Virus genome (UHGV): UHGV-0319381 | DNA: 7,118 nt | DNA from: a virus | Strand: one strand, 5' to 3' | In this document: positions 247 through 7,118 of the stretch, piece after piece | How positions within the stretch are numbered: position 1 is the stretch's first letter | Layout: each line of letters begins with the position of its first letter | The notes under the pieces: generated by a model | What the model saw: only the letters and a program-made list of their open reading frames with translations | What the model was told of the DNA's origin: nothing | Database searches by the model: none | Made by a program: the position numbers and the translations under genes

Positions 247-371
247 TAAAGAGGGGGTAAAACGTGAGCAGAGCAATGAACAAACTGAGCGATACCTTGC
301 TAAGGAAACTTCATGGTAAGCCAGCGGAGAAAAACACGTTTTATAGTGATGGCGGAAACCTGAGCGTGAAA
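247..371. repeat. Right arm of the perfect inverted repeat (int RBS plus first 36 codons)
   Basis: Exact reverse complement of 1-125. Confidence 0.9.
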
Positions 372-1493
372 TATTTAACATCAGGGAAATTGACCTGGTA
401 TTTCACATACAGGGCCGGAACGGGAAGGGAGACACGACCCGAACGCATTAAGCTGGGAAGTTATCCTGATCTGAGCCTGAAAGCAGCCAGGGAAAAAGCC
501 GCACAGTGTCGCACATGGCTGGCTGAGGGGAAAAATCCACGTCATGAGATGAATTACACCGTACAGGAAGCGTTAAAGCCCGTAACGGTTGGCGATGCGC
601 TCACCTACTGGCTTGAGTCTTACGTAAAGGAAAACCGCGTGGATTATATCGCCCTGAAAAGGCGACTTAATAATCACGTAATACAGCAGATTGGTGCTAT
701 GCCGCTGGATAAATGCGAGCTACGGCACTGGCTGGCCTGTTTTGACCAGGTGGCAAAGCGAACGCCTGTTACTGCCGGATTCGTGCTACAGGCGTGCAAA
801 CAGGCGCTTAAGTTCTGCCGTAGGCGGCGCTATGCAATCAGCAACGTTCTGGACGATCTGAACGTGGCGGACGTTGGGAAAAAACCGGATATAAGCGAAC
901 GTGTCTTAAGTAACAAAGAACTTGGCGAATTATTGCAGGCACTGGACAAAAAAATATTTTCCCCTTACTACGTCGCGTTAATCCGCCTCCTGATTGTCTT
1001 CGGAGCCAGGACGGTAGAACTGAGGCTATCGGAGATCGGGGAGTGGGATTTTACGGAAATGCTATGGACCGTTCCGAAGGAGCACAGCAAAACGAAGGTC
1101 GCAATATTCCGGCCCATACCGGAAGCGATCCTGCCGTTCGTCACGCAGCTGGTGGAGCAGAACAGGCACACGGGCTTATTGCTGGGGGAAGTGAAACAGG
1201 AGGCCAGCGTATCGCAGTATGGAAGATTAGCGCACAGGAGGCTTAATCATCCTCACTGGTCACTGCATGACATCCGGCGCACCTTTACAACCATGCTGAA
1301 CGATTTAGGCGTTGATCCGCATGTCGTGGAGCAGCTTACAGGTCATCAGATGCCAGGAATGCAGCGAGTTTATAATCATTCCCGTTATCTGGATGCTAAA
1401 CGCAATGCGCTGGATATGTGGATGGAGCGGTTAGGGATACTGGCGGGAACACATGAAAACGTAACCACGCTACCAGTAGCCAGAAGAAAATAA
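264..1493 (+). CDS. int: Site-specific tyrosine integrase, P4-type (409 aa)
   Basis: GTG start with GAGGGGG RBS 6 nt upstream. The N-terminus (KLSDT...GGNLSVKYLTSGKLTWYFTYR) aligns by eye with the N-terminal arm-binding region of CP4-57 IntA-like integrases. C-terminal tyrosine-recombinase signatures are present: ARTVELR, HDIRRTF, and Tyr in VYNHSRYLD. Confidence 0.9.
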   Translation: MSRAMNKLSDTLLRKLHGKPAEKNTFYSDGGNLSVKYLTSGKLTWYFTYRAGTGRETRPERIKLGSYPDLSLKAAREKAAQCRTWLAEGKNPRHEMNYTVQEALKPVTVGDALTYWLESYVKENRVDYIALKRRLNNHVIQQIGAMPLDKCELRHWLACFDQVAKRTPVTAGFVLQACKQALKFCRRRRYAISNVLDDLNVADVGKKPDISERVLSNKELGELLQALDKKIFSPYYVALIRLLIVFGARTVELRLSEIGEWDFTEMLWTVPKEHSKTKVAIFRPIPEAILPFVTQLVEQNRHTGLLLGEVKQEASVSQYGRLAHRRLNHPHWSLHDIRRTFTTMLNDLGVDPHVVEQLTGHQMPGMQRVYNHSRYLDAKRNALDMWMERLGILAGTHENVTTLPVARRK

Positions 1494-1510
1494 TTTTTTT
1501 CGTGTTTTTT

Positions 1511-1526
1511 CAGTATGCGCATACTG
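1511..1526. repeat. Perfect 16-bp palindrome CAGTATGCGCATACTG just downstream of int
   Basis: Self-complementary 8+8 bp; preceded, not followed, by T-runs, so not a canonical intrinsic terminator on the + strand. Confidence 0.7.
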
Positions 1527-1532
1527 GATATG

Positions 1533-1586
1533 CGAACAGATACAACATGCAACAATGAGCAACAATGCGGAACAACTACGAACAAG
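1533..1586. repeat. Helically phased AACAA-type repeats (6 units at about 10-bp spacing), including GCAACAATG x2
   Basis: AACAGA, ACAACA, AACAAT, AACAAT, AACAAC, AACAAG recur about every 10 bp; GCAACAATG at 1549-1557 and 1559-1567. Confidence 0.6.
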
Positions 1587-1680
1587 AGACGAAAAAGTGT
1601 ACGGATTTATAAGTAGCTGATTTTTAATGTGTTACTGGTTTTTTATACACTAGCGAATCACTCTTTAAATAGCGAGAAAA

Positions 1681-1707
1681 AAGGCATGAAACAATATTTT
1701 ATGCCTT
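1681..1707 (-). terminator. Possible intrinsic terminator (7-bp stem AAGGCAT/ATGCCTT, 13-nt loop), better formed on the minus strand
   Basis: On the minus strand the hairpin is followed by TTTTTCT; on the plus strand it is followed by TGTATT only. Confidence 0.25.
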
Positions 1708-1867
1708 TGTATTAACATGAATTTAAATGATTTTATCCTGATTATTCCTGTTTCTGTAAACCATACGACCTCAACATTTGCCAACTCTGAATCATCCTGA
1801 CACAATCAGACACATCCCAACGCAATAGAACACGAAATAACTCTTTAAGAAACGAAAGGGGGCAATA

Positions 1868-2056
1868 GTGTTAAGCACTGATCGGTTTATACGTGAAAAA
1901 GAATGCGAAAAGCTAACAGGCCTTAGCCGCTCATGCCGCTACCGCCTGGAAAAGGCCGGACAATTCCCATCACGTCGTAAACTTGGCGGTCGTTCCGTTG
2001 GCTGGTCTTTATCCGAGGTTCTGGCCTGGAAGGATAGCTGCAAGGCAGTTCATTAA
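1868..2056 (+). CDS. alpA: AlpA-family transcriptional regulator / excisionase-like DNA-binding protein (62 aa)
   Basis: GTG start with GGGGG RBS 5 nt upstream. The sequence (LTGLSRSCRYRLEKAGQFPSRRKLGGRSVGWSLSEVLAWK) matches the AlpA pattern (TG..R...Y......FP....LG..SVGW...E...W) and sits directly downstream of int, as in P4-like and PICI elements. Confidence 0.85.
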   Translation: MLSTDRFIREKECEKLTGLSRSCRYRLEKAGQFPSRRKLGGRSVGWSLSEVLAWKDSCKAVH

Positions 2057-2202
2057 TCACGCTGGCGGCACACAGCCGCCACACATCAATCATCTGAACA
2101 CAGAGCTATAACCATGAAGATTGAATATACGCCAGAACGTGGGCGGGGATTCGTTCGCCCTGGTGAGACTGGAAAACCACAAAATTGGGGTTTTTCAGGC
2201 AT

Positions 2203-2230
2203 AAAAAAAGCGGCCCCGAAATGGAGCCGC
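2203..2230 (-). terminator. Probable intrinsic terminator for the minus-strand RHH/57-aa cassette (possibly bidirectional)
   Basis: Stem GCGGC (2210-2214) pairs with GCCGC (2226-2230); on the minus strand it is followed by a T7 run (complement of A-run 2203-2209). It lies about 95 bp past the minus-strand stop at 2326. Confidence 0.4.
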
Positions 2231-2325
2231 CTTTCTGAACAGATAACACGCTGCGCCGTTTGTGTGTGTGATCCCAAACATAAGCACGGGGATGATAGCC
2301 GCTATCAGGCTGGTGGGCAATGCAA

Positions 2326-2499
2326 TCAGTCTGGTTCAGTTCGTTGCCATACCTGCAATGAGCGCTTTTCCCTGTACTCTTTAAGGAATTGCTCAAGGGC
2401 AAAAGCACATGGCGCGAATCTTTCTGATTCATGCTCTATCTTTCTGCGCCGTCTTTTCCGTGCCGGTGATAATGTTTTGGTCAATTCTTTATCGGTCAT
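2326..2499 (-). CDS. Hypothetical small basic protein (57 aa, MTDKELTKTLSPARKRRRRKIEHESERF...)
   Basis: ATG at 2499 with AGGA 7 nt upstream; same strand as and 57 bp downstream of the RHH gene; followed by the terminator-like hairpin. An alternative start at 2514 gives 62 aa. No family recognised. Confidence 0.3.
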   Translation of the reverse strand: MTDKELTKTLSPARKRRRRKIEHESERFAPCAFALEQFLKEYREKRSLQVWQRTEPD

Positions 2500-2556
2500 T
2501 GTGTTGTCCTGCATAGCAATGCGCCGTAATACCTCACACCACGGCGCTGATAGTGA

Positions 2557-2862
2557 TTATTCTGATTCTTTGGCCTTGCGGCGCTGTAGTTCTTCACGAG
2601 CGATGGCGATAAGTTGCCCGAGTTCTTCCGTAGCTTTAATACCAATTTTTTCCACTTGCGCCAATGCATCGAGAGAAGAAATCAGAGGATTTTCACTGCT
2701 TCCTTCTGCCTGGCGGCGGGCGATCTCCCCGCGCATGGCGGTTACTATGAATCCGGCGTTGCTTTCGCCGTCCAGTTTTACGGATTCCATGCCATCAAAA
2801 GCATCATGTGGGATACGAATTGAAATCTGTTTTGATTTGTCGTTGATAGTGTTTTTTGCCAT
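2557..2862 (-). CDS. Arc/Mnt-like ribbon-helix-helix DNA-binding protein, candidate repressor (101 aa)
   Basis: ATG at 2862 with AGGAGA RBS 6 nt upstream (complement of 2869-2874). The N-terminus KQISIRIPHDAFDGMESVKLDGESNAGFIVTAMRGEI fits the RHH pattern of a beta-strand with R-x-P followed by two helices. It is divergent from the rightward operon, with operators between them. Confidence 0.55.
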   Translation of the reverse strand: MAKNTINDKSKQISIRIPHDAFDGMESVKLDGESNAGFIVTAMRGEIARRQAEGSSENPLISSLDALAQVEKIGIKATEELGQLIAIAREELQRRKAKESE

Positions 2863-2884
2863 GTGCATTCTCCTAAACAAAAGA

Positions 2885-2960
2885 TGTGATTCAGTATACA
2901 CAAAAAAGAATCACAAAAAACACTTGACCTGTGATTCAGTTGAATTTAATTTAAATCACA
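2885..2960. promoter_or_regulatory. Divergent promoter/operator region: two copies of a palindromic operator TGTGATTCAGT-N-(G/A)AATCACA flanking a TTGACC -35 box
   Basis: Operator 1: TGTGATTC 2885-2892 with GAATCACA 2908-2915. Operator 2: TGTGATTC 2930-2937 with AAATCACA 2953-2960. The two are 45 bp apart. TTGACC at 2924-2929, then 17 bp to TAATTT at 2947-2952, so operator 2 overlaps the putative rightward promoter. Confidence 0.45.
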
Positions 2961-3049
2961 CCTCAGTAAGAGGATGTAAACGACAACGCCCCGAACTGTT
3001 TGCGGCAGTAGCGGGGCGTCTAACCAAACCGTTAACAGGAGTAACGATT

Positions 3050-3247
3050 ATGGCTGGAACACAGCATACCCCACGTCTGGCGCACACACAAACTGCCTTT
3101 GTGTGGCGTTTTCTGGCACTAAGTGCCGGAGAATCTCAAATCATCCACGTAACCGCCTGGACGGAACGCGAAGCGCGTAGCCGTTGCCCGTCCGGTTGTG
3201 TTGCTGTATTCGCCGCCCGTATTCGTCAGGGGTCACATCATGCGTAA
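3050..3247 (+). CDS. Small protein paralog A (65 aa) with FVWRF...TEREAR...ARIRQG..HA motifs; possibly the Icd-like/Ash-like small-protein family of P4-like elements (name uncertain)
   Basis: ATG at 3050 with ACAGGAG RBS and 8-nt spacer. Paralogous to 3534-3704. It is the only part of the long 2114-3247 ORF that looks coding. Confidence 0.55.
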   Translation: MAGTQHTPRLAHTQTAFVWRFLALSAGESQIIHVTAWTEREARSRCPSGCVAVFAARIRQGSHHA

Positions 3248-3533
3248 AAACCGCTTGCAAAAAATTATCACGGGGCTGTATGCTTCCCCCGTCGCCCACA
3301 TGGCGACCGGGTTTGACAGCCTGAATACTACAGCGGACAGCCGCTTACATTCCGATATGCGGTTTTTTTGTGTCCGTAAACCTACCCATACCCGCATTAT
3401 GGCGGGGCGTAACGGGGGAGCCTTTGCGCTCGCTGGTTCCTGTAGTGCCAGTCTGTCAACCCTGTTACGTCTCGCCACCATGTTTGACAGCGTAGTAGCG
3501 AGACTCCTTAATTTCACTACAGGAGCCTTTCAC

Positions 3534-3704
3534 ATGGCTGTATTCGCACGCCCTTATTTTGTCTGGCGCTTTATGCAGTGCCTGACAGACAGCATTGCAA
3601 TATTCACCGTTACCGCTGCCACTGAGCGCGAAGCACGTGCACAGCTGCCGCACGCACATCTGATTTTTGTCGCCCGTATTCGTCAGGGGGTGTGCCATGC
3701 CTGA
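3534..3704 (+). CDS. Small protein paralog B (56 aa) with the same FVWRF...TEREAR...FVARIRQG..HA motifs
   Basis: ATG at 3534 with identical ACAGGAG RBS and 8-nt spacer; shares a 19-bp identical stretch (GCCCGTATTCGTCAGGGG) with paralog A. A possible TTGACA-N17-CTTAAT promoter lies at 3484-3512. An alternative in-frame start at 3240 (154 aa) is not excluded. Confidence 0.55.
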   Translation: MAVFARPYFVWRFMQCLTDSIAIFTVTAATEREARAQLPHAHLIFVARIRQGVCHA

Positions 3705-4017
3705 TATGTCAAATTACCAGTACCTGATTAATCCGCATTTTAACTGTGAGCATGATATTGCTAAAAAAGTTTATTCCGCTGCGGATGGGGCTACTGACAA
3801 TATATCAATGGCTGTTGCGTCAATTGGTAGCCTGATGTGGCATGCGTCAGAAAATGAGGACTATGACGAAAAGGCCATGCGCATTGATATGGGTAATATT
3901 GGTTTGTTACTGGCAATGCTTGGACATTTTGATATTTCGTTACGGTGCACCATTGGAAATGCCACAGATGCATTAAATGCTATAAAGAAAGCGAATACTG
4001 ATTCAAATCGGGGATAA
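3697..4017 (+). CDS. Hypothetical protein (106 aa)
   Basis: ATG at 3697 with GGGGG RBS 6 nt upstream; start overlaps the stop of paralog B (ATGCCTGA). No family recognised. Confidence 0.5.
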   Translation: MPDMSNYQYLINPHFNCEHDIAKKVYSAADGATDNISMAVASIGSLMWHASENEDYDEKAMRIDMGNIGLLLAMLGHFDISLRCTIGNATDALNAIKKANTDSNRG

Positions 4018-4023
4018 ATAATC

Positions 4024-4323
4024 ATGAGAGCGTATTTATCTGGCTTTACTGCCAGCGGTTATGCACACCCCAAAATTATCCCCGGCGCTATTTATCTGGA
4101 TAAGAACGGTAACAGAGTAACGGTAAAAGAACTGATGTTTGACCGTGTGTATTTTATTCGTGATGGCTATTCATTTCATAGTTCGCTGAACGTGGAGATC
4201 TTTATTAGCAGATTCCGGCGGGAAATCCCGCTTTCCAGAAATAACCATGTGTCATGTATGGATGTTGATAAAAAACTACAGGAACTGAAAAACATGATTG
4301 CCGCGTGGAGAGAGCAGAAATGA
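4024..4323 (+). CDS. Hypothetical protein (99 aa) immediately upstream of, and translationally coupled to, the alpha-like gene
   Basis: ATG at 4024 with GGGGA RBS about 9 nt upstream; its TGA stop overlaps the ATG of the next gene (ATGA at 4320-4323). Confidence 0.5.
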   Translation: MRAYLSGFTASGYAHPKIIPGAIYLDKNGNRVTVKELMFDRVYFIRDGYSFHSSLNVEIFISRFRREIPLSRNNHVSCMDVDKKLQELKNMIAAWREQK

Positions 4324-6137
4324 AAAAAGCGCCAAATTTAAAACACCAGCCGCGTGACAAAATGACGGAAGTCATCATTTTTGCGGGTAGTGATGCGTGG
4401 GCACATGCGAAGCAGTGGCAGGAACAGGACGGGCGACTGGCTGGCGATAACGTGCCACCTGTCTGGCTTGGAGAGCAACAACTTGCCGAACTGGACAACC
4501 TGCAAATCGTACCGGACGGACGCTATCGCGTGCGTCTCTACCAGGCGGGGTTATTGCGTCCGGGGCTTGTTAATACCATCGGGCAGAAACTGGCAGCGGC
4601 AGGTGTCAGGGATGCTGATTATTACCCTGAAGGAATGCACAGCCAGAAACGGGAGAACTGGCGCGAATATCTGGAACGTGAGCGGGGAGAGCTGGCGGAA
4701 AAGAAAAAGGTAGTTGAACTGCCTGTAAAGAAAAAAGAGCGGGTAAAAGACGATAACGCTTCATCACTGGCGCTTAACCAGATGGGAGCAAGTCAACGCG
4801 GCGAAGTTCTCCTGGCACATTATGGCGGTGAACTGGCGATTCATGCTGACTCTGACACTGTTCACTATTACAACGGCGTTGTATGGGAGCCAGTACAGGA
4901 TAAAGAATTACAGCGAGCTATGGCGCAGATTTTCATTGATGCGGAGATCAGCTATTCGCAGAACGCCATTAAATCGGCGGTCGATACCATGAAGTTAAGT
5001 TTGCCTGTAATGGGGAATACAGCCCGTAACCTGATTGGATTCAGTAACGGTGTTTTTGATACCCGGACAGGCGATTTTCGGGAGCATAACAAAAACGACT
5101 GGTTGTTAATTGCCAGTGAATTACCTTTCAGCCCACCAGCAGAGGGGGAAACGCTGGCAACACATGCGCCGAATTTCTGGAAGTGGTTACGCCGTTCGGT
5201 GGCTGAGAATGACCGCAAGGCGGATCGCGTACTGGCTGCATTATTCATGGTGCTGGCGAACCGGTACGACTGGCAGTTATTCATTGAGGTAACAGGTCCA
5301 GGGGGAAGTGGTAAAAGCGTGATGGCGGAGATTTGCACCATGCTGGCGGGTAAGGCCAACACGGTATCGGCAAGCATGAAGGCGCTGGAAGATGCCAGGG
5401 AACGCGCGTTAGTGGTTGGCTTTTCGCTGATTATCATGCCGGATATGACCCGTTACGCTGGTGATGGCGCAGGAATTAAGGCCATTACAGGCGGTGACAA
5501 GGTGGCAATCGACCCGAAGCATAAAGCCCCCTACTCAACACGCATTCAGGCGGTAGTGTTGGCGGTGAACAATAACGCCATGTCATTCAGTGACCGCAGC
5601 GGGGGGATTTCACGTCGTCGGGTGATATTCAATTTTTCGGAGGTTGTACCGGAAAACGAACGCGACCCCATGCTGGCAGAAAAAATAGAAGGAGAGCTGG
5701 CGGTTGTGATTCGCCACCTGCTTACTCGTTTTTCTGACCAGGACGCAGCTAAACGCCTGCTGTATGAGCAGCAGAAATCAGAAGAAGCTCTGGTGATAAA
5801 ACGCGAGGGCGATTCGCTGGTGGACTTCTGCGGCTATCTCATGTCGTCGGTAATGTGTGATGGTCTGTTAGTGGGTAATGCCGAAATTATTCCGTTCAGT
5901 CCGCGCAGGTATCTTTATCACGCCTATCTGGCATATATGAGGGCACACGGATTCGGTAAACCTGTAACACTGACGCGCTTCGGTAAAGATATGCCGGGGG
6001 CAATGGCGGAATATGGCAGGGAGTATATGAAACGGAAAACGAAGCACGGTTTGCGTTCAAACGTGACACTGACGGAGGAATCAGAAGACTGGATGCCATC
6101 ATGTGTATCGGTCACTAATGACGACAGCAAAAATTAA
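4320..6137 (+). CDS. P4 alpha-like replication protein: SF3-type helicase / phage-plasmid primase P4-family C-terminal region (605 aa)
   Basis: ATG at 4320 with GGAG RBS; an alternative GTG at 4305 gives 610 aa. Walker A VTGPGGSGKS at about residues 325-333 and Walker B-like hydrophobic-D (LIIMPD). A long C-terminal region is followed immediately by TGTTCACC iterons. The N-terminal roughly 300 aa carry no primase signature I can recognise by eye. Confidence 0.8.
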   Translation: MKKAPNLKHQPRDKMTEVIIFAGSDAWAHAKQWQEQDGRLAGDNVPPVWLGEQQLAELDNLQIVPDGRYRVRLYQAGLLRPGLVNTIGQKLAAAGVRDADYYPEGMHSQKRENWREYLERERGELAEKKKVVELPVKKKERVKDDNASSLALNQMGASQRGEVLLAHYGGELAIHADSDTVHYYNGVVWEPVQDKELQRAMAQIFIDAEISYSQNAIKSAVDTMKLSLPVMGNTARNLIGFSNGVFDTRTGDFREHNKNDWLLIASELPFSPPAEGETLATHAPNFWKWLRRSVAENDRKADRVLAALFMVLANRYDWQLFIEVTGPGGSGKSVMAEICTMLAGKANTVSASMKALEDARERALVVGFSLIIMPDMTRYAGDGAGIKAITGGDKVAIDPKHKAPYSTRIQAVVLAVNNNAMSFSDRSGGISRRRVIFNFSEVVPENERDPMLAEKIEGELAVVIRHLLTRFSDQDAAKRLLYEQQKSEEALVIKREGDSLVDFCGYLMSSVMCDGLLVGNAEIIPFSPRRYLYHAYLAYMRAHGFGKPVTLTRFGKDMPGAMAEYGREYMKRKTKHGLRSNVTLTEESEDWMPSCVSVTNDDSKN

Positions 6138-6151
6138 ACTTATGGAATAAC

Positions 6152-6378
6152 TGTTCACCACTGTTCACCCTGTTATAAATATCTTTTATATCAGTATATT
6201 ATATGGTGAACAGTTATTTGTGAACTGTTCACCAAACTATTCACTGTTCACCTTTTTGATTATTTATTGAGCTTTAAGGGTGAACAGTGGTGAACAGTTG
6301 GTGAATAGTTTTTGTGAAACTGTTCACCCCTTAACATTATGAATAAAAAGGGAAAATCTCAAAAGGTGAACAGGTGAA
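6152..6378. repeat. Iteron array, putative origin of replication (crr/ori-like): about 11 copies of TGTTCACC in both orientations around an AT-rich core
   Basis: Forward TGTTCACC at 6152, 6162, 6226, 6245, 6321. Reverse GGTGAACA at 6205, 6279, 6289, 6365, with degenerate copies at 6300 and 6373. Several copies sit at 10-11 bp phasing. AT-rich stretch at 6171-6204. Confidence 0.75.
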
Positions 6379-6424
6379 GGGTTAAAATGCAAAAATTTTA
6401 TTTTATTGCTGTGAGGTAAAGCCT

Positions 6425-6670
6425 GTGACAACGAAGCACGCAAAAAAACCACAATCTCACGCCCTTGATTTGACAGAACACTGGCTGAGGGTGGCGATAA
6501 AAATCATCGACCGCAACGCGGGAGAAGGGTACGCAAAAGCACATCCCGAACTGATAAGCGCATTCATGACCACGGCGGCAGCAAACTTTGCCACGCTGAC
6601 AGAACGGGAGATTGCCGAAGCGGAACAGGTGACAACCATCAACGTTAAAACCGGAGAGCAGACAGCATGA
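6425..6670 (+). CDS. Hypothetical protein (81 aa)
   Basis: GTG at 6425 with GAGG RBS 8 nt upstream; stop overlaps the start of the following SSB-like ORF (ATGA at 6667-6670). No family recognised. Confidence 0.4.
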   Translation: MTTKHAKKPQSHALDLTEHWLRVAIKIIDRNAGEGYAKAHPELISAFMTTAAANFATLTEREIAEAEQVTTINVKTGEQTA

Positions 6671-7118
6671 CAGCACAGATAGCGGCTTACGGGCGGCTGG
6701 TGGCTGACCCGCAGTTAAAGACCACCAGCAAAGGGACACAAATGGCGATGGCGAGTATGGCGGTTCCCCTGCCGTGCAGCCAGGCAGATGACGGAACGGC
6801 GACGATGTGGTTATCTGTCCTGGCGTTTGGCAGACAGGCCGACGCACTGGCAAAACACCACAAAGGCGAACTGGTGAGCGTGGCGGGTAACATGCAGGTG
6901 AGCCAGTGGACAGGCCAGAACGGGGAAACGCGGCAGGGCTGGCAGGTTATTGCAGACAGCGTAATCAGTTGCTTAAAACGGTATGTTATCCCCGTACGGA
7001 TCAACATTTCCCGCCTGTTGTTTTGCCCTGTTCAGCGCGTCAGTAGCCTGGCCCTGTTGAGCTTTTTTGCCGCCCGGTCGCGCCGTTCGCGCACTGATTA
7101 CGCTGTCTGCAATAACCT
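6667..7118 (+). CDS. SSB-like OB-fold single-stranded DNA-binding protein, 3'-partial (runs off the window)
   Basis: ATG at 6667 with GGAG RBS. IAAYGRLVADPQLKTTSKGTQMAMASMAV...WLSVLAFGRQADALAKHHKGELVSVAGNMQVSQWTGQNGETRQGWQVIADSV aligns by eye with the bacterial SSB OB-fold pattern (VGRLG.DPE.R.T..G...A.F..A...W....A.G..AE.A..YL.KGS.V...G.L....W.D..G..R....V.A). No stop before the window end; the region after the OB fold is atypical (hydrophobic/basic rather than Gly-rich acidic tail). Confidence 0.55.
   Translation, partial: MTAQIAAYGRLVADPQLKTTSKGTQMAMASMAVPLPCSQADDGTATMWLSVLAFGRQADALAKHHKGELVSVAGNMQVSQWTGQNGETRQGWQVIADSVISCLKRYVIPVRINISRLLFCPVQRVSSLALLSFFAARSRRSRTDYAVCNN

Follow-up and report, generated by a model that had tools for sequence, protein, structure and literature searches.

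A candidate ribbon-helix-helix repressor module with co-varying operators at the replication-operon promoter of Gram-negative phage-inducible chromosomal islands

The virus genome UHGV-0319381 (7,118 nucleotides; this whole stretch is called the window below) encodes, between alpA and a P4-type primase gene, a 101-amino-acid (aa) protein of the YlcI/YnfO family. We read this protein as a sequence-specific, autoregulated ribbon-helix-helix (RHH) repressor of the operon that runs from icd-like genes to the primase gene, with a read-through route like that of the P4 eta gene operating at induction, and we give this reading a probability of roughly 0.7. It builds on what the data establish directly, namely the anatomy of the locus, the co-variation of protein and operators across relatives, a fold prediction, an open overlapping reading frame, and RNA elements, from which we infer that the protein binds its sites, represses the operon, and controls its own gene, and that the read-through route operates.

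Judged by gene content and by matches to Escherichia coli islands, the window covers the left half of a Gram-negative phage-inducible chromosomal island (PICI) or capsid-forming PICI (cf-PICI). Such elements move virulence, defense, and resistance genes among enterobacteria and are now being engineered as delivery vehicles. Their control has so far been described through AlpA alone: AlpA switches its own promoter on and is both necessary and sufficient for induction, and the founding paper calls the repressor of these islands “unclear” (PMC6092414). In a 2023 survey, the stretch from alpA to the replicase is portrayed as a zone of Bro-network genes and immunity RNAs, the genes being “unidirectional.” The literature that we searched agrees with the original prediction for this DNA, a model's reading of the sequence alone, that Gram-negative PICIs are without a described repressor. 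It contained no paper linking an RHH protein with PICIs, and YlcI/YnfO appears there solely as an annotation label in cf-PICI gene lists.

Results

The gene and its operators lie where they had been predicted. The 101-aa frame is on the minus strand, divergent from the rightward operon, and the intergenic region holds two 31-bp palindromes (2885-2915 and 2930-2960) whose starts are 45 bp apart, each composed of TGTGATTCAGT and a downstream AATCACA. Exactly two matches to TGTGATT-N17-AATCACA occur in the window when one mismatch is allowed, compared with a mean of 0.00 and a maximum of 0 in 200 dinucleotide-preserving shuffles; four of the six TGTGATT heptamers in the 7118 bp fall within 76 bp. 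The proposed rightward promoter, TTGACC-N17-TAATTT (P_R), is also in place, and it leads via the icd-like genes to the D5/P4-type primase. Both palindromes had been assigned to this promoter. That holds for the right-hand one, whose sites C and D bracket the P_R -10 box (Table 1), whereas the left-hand one, with sites A and B, brackets a TATACT that is the probable -10 box of the RHH gene's own promoter (P_L). A TGAATCA (1788-1797) within the spacer of a putative alpA promoter was considered as a fifth site and rejected, since it is also found upstream of alpA in islands of another operator class.

The assignment of the palindromes to this protein is supported by class-specific co-variation over about 180 related loci from genomes, metagenomes, and IMG/VR, for which we extracted the first protein residues and 215 nucleotides (nt) of upstream sequence. 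The predicted beta-strand motif (residues 11 to 16) falls into about 10 types (KQISIR/RQISIR, QLTTVR, QSLTAR, QMTTIR, QQLNAR, QMKNIR, QIKNVR, QLKNIR, and QALAAR) and the operators into about 8, and every strand class has its own motif of about 10 bp, present in three to four copies in the 110-nt operator region. The window's class (class 1, QISIR), with the site consensus GTGTGATTCA of about 10 bp, has TGTGATT at 4.1 copies. The corresponding words are GTGTTTC in the LTTVR class (3.0 copies), TGTAAG in SLTAR (3.9), TATATC in MTTIR (3.6), and GGTATTC in QLNAR (3.0). Examples of class motifs are TGTGATTCA, GTGTGTTTCA, GTGTAAGAC, TGTATATCAC, and GGTATTCAC, together with GTGTGTA or AATACACAC, and GTGTGCAAC; GTGTTTCA is an example from the operator region of another class. 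A table of class by motif is near diagonal, with foreign-class motifs at 0 to 0.1 in well-sampled classes except where short test words overlap, such as GTGTGT inside the LTTVR site.

The layout is fixed in all classes and reads A, TATAC box (the P_L -10), B, TTGAC, C, TAnnnT, D, with the TAnnnT hexamer (mostly TAAnnT) lying 17 to 18 nt after TTGAC in nearly all of them. The copies proximal to the promoter are direct repeats in some classes, not inverted ones, an arrangement that fits a single RHH dimer on each site. When class 1 is compared between genera, the columns without variation are the four sites, the -35 box, and the two -10 boxes, while the remainder diverges. Gene order is likewise conserved: int, alpA, the RHH gene divergent from the next operon, about 190 bp, an icd-like gene, and a replicase gene that can be of three unrelated types. 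In a look for heteroimmunity between co-resident islands, the only two loci that come from one genome (L155 and L156) have identical cassettes and may be overlapping predictions of one region.

The sites are, we argue, partnered by the N-terminal 30 residues of the protein and not by its C-terminal half, the AlpA type, or the Icd-like type. Across E. coli classes, identity is 65 to 96% in the middle part of the protein, 71 to 87% in the C-terminal part, and 33 to 57% in the first 30 residues. Loci from Yersinia, Edwardsiella, and two metagenomes combine a class 1 N terminus and TGTGATT sites with a C terminus that is only 35 to 60% identical. Furthermore, operator class is shuffled with respect to the type of the first icd-like protein and with respect to AlpA type, the window's AlpA (at least 95% identity) being paired with four classes. 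Co-variation thus provides indirect evidence that residues of a beta ribbon read the operator subsites. Because strand motif and sites appear to have diversified together into about eight specificities, the module behaves like a phage immunity determinant, apparently one exchanged among PICIs, cf-PICIs, and related satellites.

Repeats bound by an RHH protein need not be operators, given that omega and ParG are RHH proteins that bind heptad arrays, direct or inverted. The protein could be a centromere-binding partition factor of this type and the repeats the partition site of a plasmid-like satellite state; AATCACA does fit the omega heptad consensus WATCACW. What we find instead is four spaced sites locked to promoter elements and no contiguous heptad array, and neither the window nor any complete relative encodes a ParA-type ATPase, which leaves a partition function barely conceivable.

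Residues 9 to 50 of the protein match YlcI_YnfO_N (NCBIfam NF041551, an N-terminal 42-residue model with a curated cutoff) at 65.7 bits against a cutoff of 30 (E = 2.8e-18), and RefSeq gives relatives the same YlcI/YnfO name; in PHROGs the protein falls into two families, both of unknown function. In single-chain prediction, residues ~9 to 54 model as an RHH-type DNA-binding domain, with a predicted strand at ~12 to 18 and helices at 19 to 28 and 35 to 54, which is the strand-helix-helix topology of the RHH superfamily (~45 residues). The structure-prediction check that had been proposed for the 101-aa protein came out, for its N-terminal half, in favor of the fold. Structure comparison aligned 43 of 44 residues with PutA (2rbf_A) at 2.0 Å and 49 of 51 with TacA1 (7zg6_B) at 2.6 Å, and the further RHH entries were Rv0298 (8u12_A), NikR (1q5v_A), TacA2 (7ak7_C), and MazE4 (5xe3_E); a Foldseek search of the monomer model against the PDB gave nothing below E = 3.

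The protein had been called Arc/Mnt-like, and this description is apt for fold and architecture but not for descent. There is no Pfam Arc hit, and hhalign gave E = 0.0038 with a probability of 8.8% against Arc (query verified as 1arq) and E = 0.17 over 11 columns against a putative Mnt sequence; the Arc query alone matched 1mnt, at E = 4.3e-06. By sequence comparison, homology to Arc or Mnt is not demonstrable. The best Pfam match is PSK_trans_fac, which at E = 0.017 is under the cutoff and which also matches 23 of 30 relatives (best E = 0.0011).

Residues 57 to 101 form a conserved C-terminal domain, predicted to be helical, that is near-identical over the E. coli specificity classes, with I73-G74 invariant. 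AlphaFold2 (AF2) renders it as a single long helix (59 to 100) with a predicted local distance difference test score of up to 92; the invariant Gly74 and a weak PDB profile match to the helix-hairpin-helix of Hef (1x2i_A, E = 0.0087) suggest a fold other than one long helix. The family comprises 207 clusters at 90% identity and 73 at 50% identity among 1.84 billion representatives, is found mostly in Enterobacterales, and has two architectures, an RHH-only form of 52 to 70 aa and a form of ~100 aa with the C-terminal extension. A tblastn search with the RHH protein of 50,697 phage records, which we assume to include P4, gave no match.

A small RHH protein encoded next to another small protein might be the antitoxin of a type II toxin-antitoxin pair, with the palindromes as an autoregulatory operator. 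The candidate toxin would be ORF62 (MQDNTMTDKELTKTLSPARKRRRRK...), a small basic protein whose open reading frame (ORF) is co-oriented with the RHH gene ahead of a shared terminator and is identical in CFT073 and SHP24. We dropped this reading, which we consider very improbable, because ORF62 is kept in E. coli relatives only, with no copy following the gene in Yersinia, Edwardsiella, Klebsiella, and Erwinia loci, and matches no Pfam, NCBIfam, or toxin family. Moreover, two of the four sites are on the promoter of the divergent operon and not on that of the gene itself.

The RHH gene, ORF62, and the operator region all lie antisense to a 377-aa plus-strand ORF that is in frame with the first icd-like ORF. 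Of 83 distinct intergenic sequences, 68 keep this frame open, among them members of the various classes and of several genera, and 68 have a length of 1 mod 3, indels coming in multiples of three; the distances observed from the RHH ATG to the icd ATG (187, 190, 193, 196, 199, 202, 208, and 211) are all 1 mod 3. Class representatives have no stop in the long-ORF frame compared with two to eight in the other two frames, and shuffles place the probability of finding no stop at 0.007 to 0.019 per representative locus. Similar ORFs occur in EcCICFT073 (428 aa, L187 17767-19053) and in SHP24 (L002 13868-14812). By analogy, the long ORF is the counterpart of P4 eta, which starts after vis (an alpA homologue), contains the constitutive promoter P_LE and the CI RNA, and is translated only from the upstream late promoter, its translation preventing termination (PMC10111431).

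The long frame also offers a rival account of the locus, in which the plus-strand “Icd-like” ORF is the real gene, the minus-strand RHH ORF is unexpressed, and another factor binds the repeats. NCBI annotation often names this ORF as an Icd-like protein of 330 to 600 aa (a search returned 1712 relatives, and most of the 120 hits listed bear that name), and the frame is indeed kept open across the region. Yet variable sites over the RHH gene follow its codon phase (RHH positions 2/1/3 = 44/58/91), while in the operator region the plus frame is unbiased at 33/33/33; the control counts are 18/9/38 for alpA and 22/20/40 for the icd-like gene. This difference argues that the RHH frame is constrained as a protein and that the plus frame is merely kept open. 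RHH-family members also exist as free-standing proteins of 52 to 70 aa, and the RHH N terminus is the only product that co-varies with the repeats, so that an unexpressed RHH ORF seems to us a most improbable solution.

The rightward operon also carries RNA immunity of the P1/P7/P4 kind, as a C4/CI-type RNA and its a1/b1 target are situated between the icd-like ORFs. The contrast that had been drawn with the RNA-based immunity of P4 does not stand, since the window itself holds such an RNA and target. The C4 RNA was found in 2 of 16 sources scanned, the window included. An annotated 154-aa “Icd-like/ash” ORF (3240-3704) largely covers it, and a weaker, isrK-like match lies at 3291-3369.

Other islands have different cassettes at the same position. 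In SHP24 (L002 14311-14545) there is an unannotated ORF for a 57-aa Arc-like protein (MSTPLEKRSPPYQMRLPEDF...; phrog_228, E = 1.5e-6), with two ATGGTAATTACC palindromes flanking the -10 box of TTGACA-N17-TACTAT; the sequence becomes homologous to the window again from the last 12 codons of the RHH gene onward. From sequence, this cassette is an independent and unrelated case at the same position. EcCICFT073 (strain CFT073, L187 18474-18653) encodes a 59-aa YlcI/YnfO protein with the RHH domain joined directly to a basic tail, and GTGGGCCACAC occurs twice around its P_R -10 box. Every island examined has some repressor-operator-type cassette here, bracketing the -10 box of the replication-operon promoter. 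Of 5426 complete E. coli genomes, 675 (~12%) have a relative of window bases 2557 to 3049, among them O157:H7 strains and Nissle 1917, and the EcCIEDL933-type cf-PICI in tqsA carries the module in the enterohemorrhagic E. coli strains examined, a set without EDL933.

The window has the hallmarks of a PICI or cf-PICI, with int, alpA, a primase-type replicase gene, and an iteron origin in a single orientation; the GGTGAACAG iterons are the origin type described for PICIs. By megablast, window positions 247 to 6969 match near-identical islands inside tqsA in many E. coli chromosomes. The window ends before the right half of the island, for which three complete annotated relatives provide two forms: one with capsid, protease, portal, connectors, HNH, TerS, and TerL, as in the EcCIEDL933 type of cf-PICI, and one with capsid and decoration protein, as in the EcCICFT073 type (strain 300709, which is 100% identical to the window over bases 2557 to 3049). 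None of these three relatives has sid, psu, or delta. Given tqsA islands with PICI or cf-PICI right halves, the module sits in the regulatory region of Gram-negative PICIs.

TABLE 1 Features of the window and their coordinates
Feature	Position	Strand	Basis or remark
Tyrosine integrase gene, int	264-1493	+	Pfam/NCBIfam
alpA	1868-2056	+	PF05930, E = 5e-18; converges on the RHH transcription unit
Long ORF, 377 aa	2114-3247	+	Frame open from 2057, directly after the alpA stop
Strong intrinsic terminator of the leftward RHH-ORF62 transcript	2204-2236	-	-21.7 kcal/mol, 14-bp stem, U7, z = -3.4
ORF62, small basic protein	2326-2514	-	phrog_21027, E = 1.6e-15
RHH gene, 101-aa YlcI/YnfO-family protein	2557-2862	-	ORF list; ATG is the reverse complement of 2860-2862, stop at 2557-2559
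Shine-Dalgarno AGGAGA of RHH gene	2869-2874	-	Sequence; AGGAG core (2870-2874) 7 nt before ATG
Site A, TGTGATTCAGT	2885-2895	+	Overlaps the end of the P_L -10 and the probable start; invariant in class 1 across genera
P_L -10 (probable), TATACT	2893-2898	-	TATAC/ATACA box kept here in all operator classes
Site B, TTGTGATTCT	2907-2916	-	AATCACA core 2909-2915; in P_L spacer region
P_R -35, TTGACC	2924-2929	+	TTGAC kept in nearly all loci, whatever the operator class
Site C, TGTGATTCAGT	2930-2940	+	P_R spacer, directly 3' of -35
P_R -10, TAATTT	2947-2952	+	17 nt after -35
Site D, GTGTGATTTA	2952-2961	-	AATCACA core 2954-2960; over the expected P_R start site
GC-rich hairpin in P_R leader	2986-3019	+	-21.6 kcal/mol; followed by TCTAACCA (3021-3028)
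First icd-like ORF, 65 aa	3050-3247	+	NF033153, E = 5.4e-18; first gene under P_R
a1/b1 target of C4 antisense RNA	3278-3327	+	RF03163, 46.8 bits (gathering 46.7)
C4/CI-type immunity RNA, P1/P7/P4 kind	3395-3482	+	RF01695, 72.3 bits (gathering 45), E = 4.3e-13
Second icd-like ORF/domain	3534-3704	+	
DUF4222 gene	Between second icd-like ORF and primase gene	+	
D5_N/Pox_D5 primase gene, P4 type	4320-6137	+	Pfam/NCBIfam
Iteron field	6149-6375		Eleven GGTGAACAG copies in both orientations around AT-rich stretches; directly 3' of primase gene
ssb, truncated	Right end of window	+	

Some smaller elements accompany the module. The hairpin in the P_R leader is present in 43 of 43 distinct leader variants, across all operator classes, and is mostly invariant (compensatory change in three of seven pairs; covariation term of -0.04). 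The adjacent TCTAACCA is single-stranded and faintly boxA-like, and a U tract is lacking. On the plus strand, the terminator of the RHH-ORF62 transcript reads as a much weaker hairpin (-13.8 kcal/mol) in the path of alpA transcripts. Between int and alpA, the RF02996 int-alpA RNA motif occurs at 42 to 51 bits in four loci from other genera (L004, L005, L019, and L023); in the window it was undetected even at E up to 1.

The ends of the window are inverted. Positions 1 to 125 are the reverse complement of 247 to 371, positions 126 to 246 are the true segment upstream of int in inverted orientation, and the sequence beyond 6971 is the reverse complement of the remainder of ssb, folding back onto 6946 to 6971. 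E. coli genomes match the window over 247 to 6969 only. These ends (1-246 and 6972-7118) look like a fold-back artifact of assembly or amplification.

Discussion

We propose that RHH dimers bind the four ~10-bp sites. Because sites C and D bracket the P_R -10 box, their occupation should keep RNA polymerase off the operon, so that the icd-like gene, C4 RNA, second icd-like gene, DUF4222 gene, and primase gene would be silenced together; because A and B bracket the P_L -10 box, the repressor would also regulate its own synthesis negatively. The C-terminal helical domain probably links dimers 21 to 24 bp apart. In a resting island the repressor would keep P_R off, with the C4 RNA as a second block where it is present.

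Induction would probably not require removal of the repressor. AlpA, triggered by a helper, would drive upstream transcription past the terminator, which is weak on the plus strand, and on through the repressor gene in antisense; as in P4, translation of the eta-like ORF would keep this transcript going to the replication genes. The same antisense transcript would interfere with repressor synthesis. AlpA of Pseudomonas aeruginosa is a processive antiterminator (PMC7969949, PMC9371919), which by analogy makes the read-through route plausible for PICI AlpA. Under this proposal the repressor would serve immunity and maintenance and would not be what the inducer acts on, although a helper-encoded antirepressor may act on the conserved C-terminal domain.

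Several observations weigh against this proposal. Binding, promoter activity, and start sites are all deduced from sequence. P_L has no -35 box recognizable in a generic promoter scan, and the P_R -10 box is weak: the same scan missed P_R because TAATTT fits TATAAT at only three of six positions, so that support for P_R comes from positional conservation across relatives and not from a consensus score. The site centers are 24 bp apart, which is no integral number of helical turns. The AF2 monomer is without any DSSP strand, no Pfam RHH family (Arc, RHH_1, CopG, and others) scores above threshold for the protein and 30 relatives, and sequence and profile searches with the protein and alignments A1 and A5 did not find relatives in the PDB. 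The member in EcCICFT073 is of the RHH-only form and has no C-terminal domain. The N-terminal coding segment adjoins the operators, so that part of their co-inheritance is simple linkage; linkage cannot, however, explain the repetition of a class motif in four copies at conserved positions. Finally, EcCICFT073 is induced by AlpA overexpression alone, and induction fails in alpA mutants of EcCICFT073 and EcCIEDL933 (PMC6092414). As AlpA alone suffices in EcCICFT073, the repressor is not the only gate, and the master-repressor role suggested in the original prediction is unproven; that island has the 59-aa version.

These last points would suit a lesser role, in which the protein binds its sites as a local autoregulator or fine-tuner and induction is decided by AlpA and, where present, the C4 RNA; such a protein may damp basal P_R activity or provide immunity against incoming related islands. 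The free swapping of the module, with an unrelated mini-RHH protein in its place in one island, points the same way. We nevertheless think it unlikely that the role is so limited, as a cassette stands at this position in every island examined and always brackets the replication-operon -10 box, which argues for a central function. A step beyond the repressor reading, which we offer tentatively and would sooner doubt than adopt, is that this cassette supplies the immunity repressor so far missing from Gram-negative PICIs and cf-PICIs and holds their replication operon silent, with about eight mutually exclusive specificities and an AlpA-driven toggle based on convergent transcription. If so, AlpA-modified, ribosome-protected transcription of the eta-like ORF would turn replication on and the repressor off in one act, and the repressor gene would have been placed on purpose within, and antisense to, the frame that overrides it.

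As a device, the module is probably a classical RHH repressor-operator switch, and what is probably new is its occurrence in elements thought to lack one, its specificity classes, and its antisense nesting. For islands whose control has been ascribed to AlpA, it supplies a concrete repressor candidate, one found in both of the model islands used in the laboratory (EcCICFT073 and the EcCIEDL933 type). The specificity classes would predict cross-repression between co-resident or incoming islands, and nesting within the eta-like ORF gives a testable account of the way in which AlpA “activates” the genes downstream.

Comparison with known systems

The layout had been likened to the Stl-Str switch of Staphylococcus aureus pathogenicity islands (SaPIs). 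Stl proteins are helix-turn-helix proteins, encoded on the same strand as int and inactivated by the binding of helper proteins. The likeness to SaPI Stl and to Rpr of Gram-positive PICIs (PMC6092414) extends to a repressor gene that is divergent from the operon of replication genes. In contrast, the protein described here has an RHH fold as predicted, int and alpA are on the strand opposite to the repressor gene and co-oriented with the rightward operon, so that the repressor gene converges on alpA, and AlpA is the demonstrated trigger. With another fold and another orientation relative to int, the module is outside the Stl/Rpr group, and its layout is not that of Stl.

The immI module of P1 and P7 consists of c4 RNA, icd, and ant. 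It shares with the window a C4 RNA and a1b1 targets (RF01695, RF03163) beside icd-like ORFs in the same operon. The C4 RNA is present in only some of the relatives here, and P1 immI is not known to be headed by a divergent RHH repressor.

With the P4 left operon (PMC10111431) the window shares an alpA/vis homologue followed by a long ORF with an internal promoter, a C4/CI RNA, and a P4-type primase. In P4, translation of the long ORF from the upstream promoter is the published route past the immunity block, and the same account mentions no protein repressor of P_LE (PMC10111431). The island differs in having an RHH gene and operators embedded in its eta-like ORF and, in the complete relatives, capsid or full head-packaging modules rather than sid, psu, and delta.

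Mnt of P22 is a small RHH protein with an additional C-terminal helical domain; its gene is divergent from the operon that it represses, its operator is over the promoter of that operon, and its own promoter is regulated. The YlcI/YnfO module is alike in its divergent gene, its operators over the operon promoter, and its predicted RHH fold, and would be alike in repression and autoregulation; its C-terminal domain is predicted to be helical. The two proteins have no detectable sequence relation, and where Mnt has one 17-bp operator, the module has four spaced sites around two -10 boxes. It also differs in its satellite host, in a gene that lies antisense within a long ORF, and in about eight co-evolved specificities. 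The closest known system is Mnt/O_mnt/P_ant of P22 at the level of the protein and the left operon of P4 at the level of the operon.

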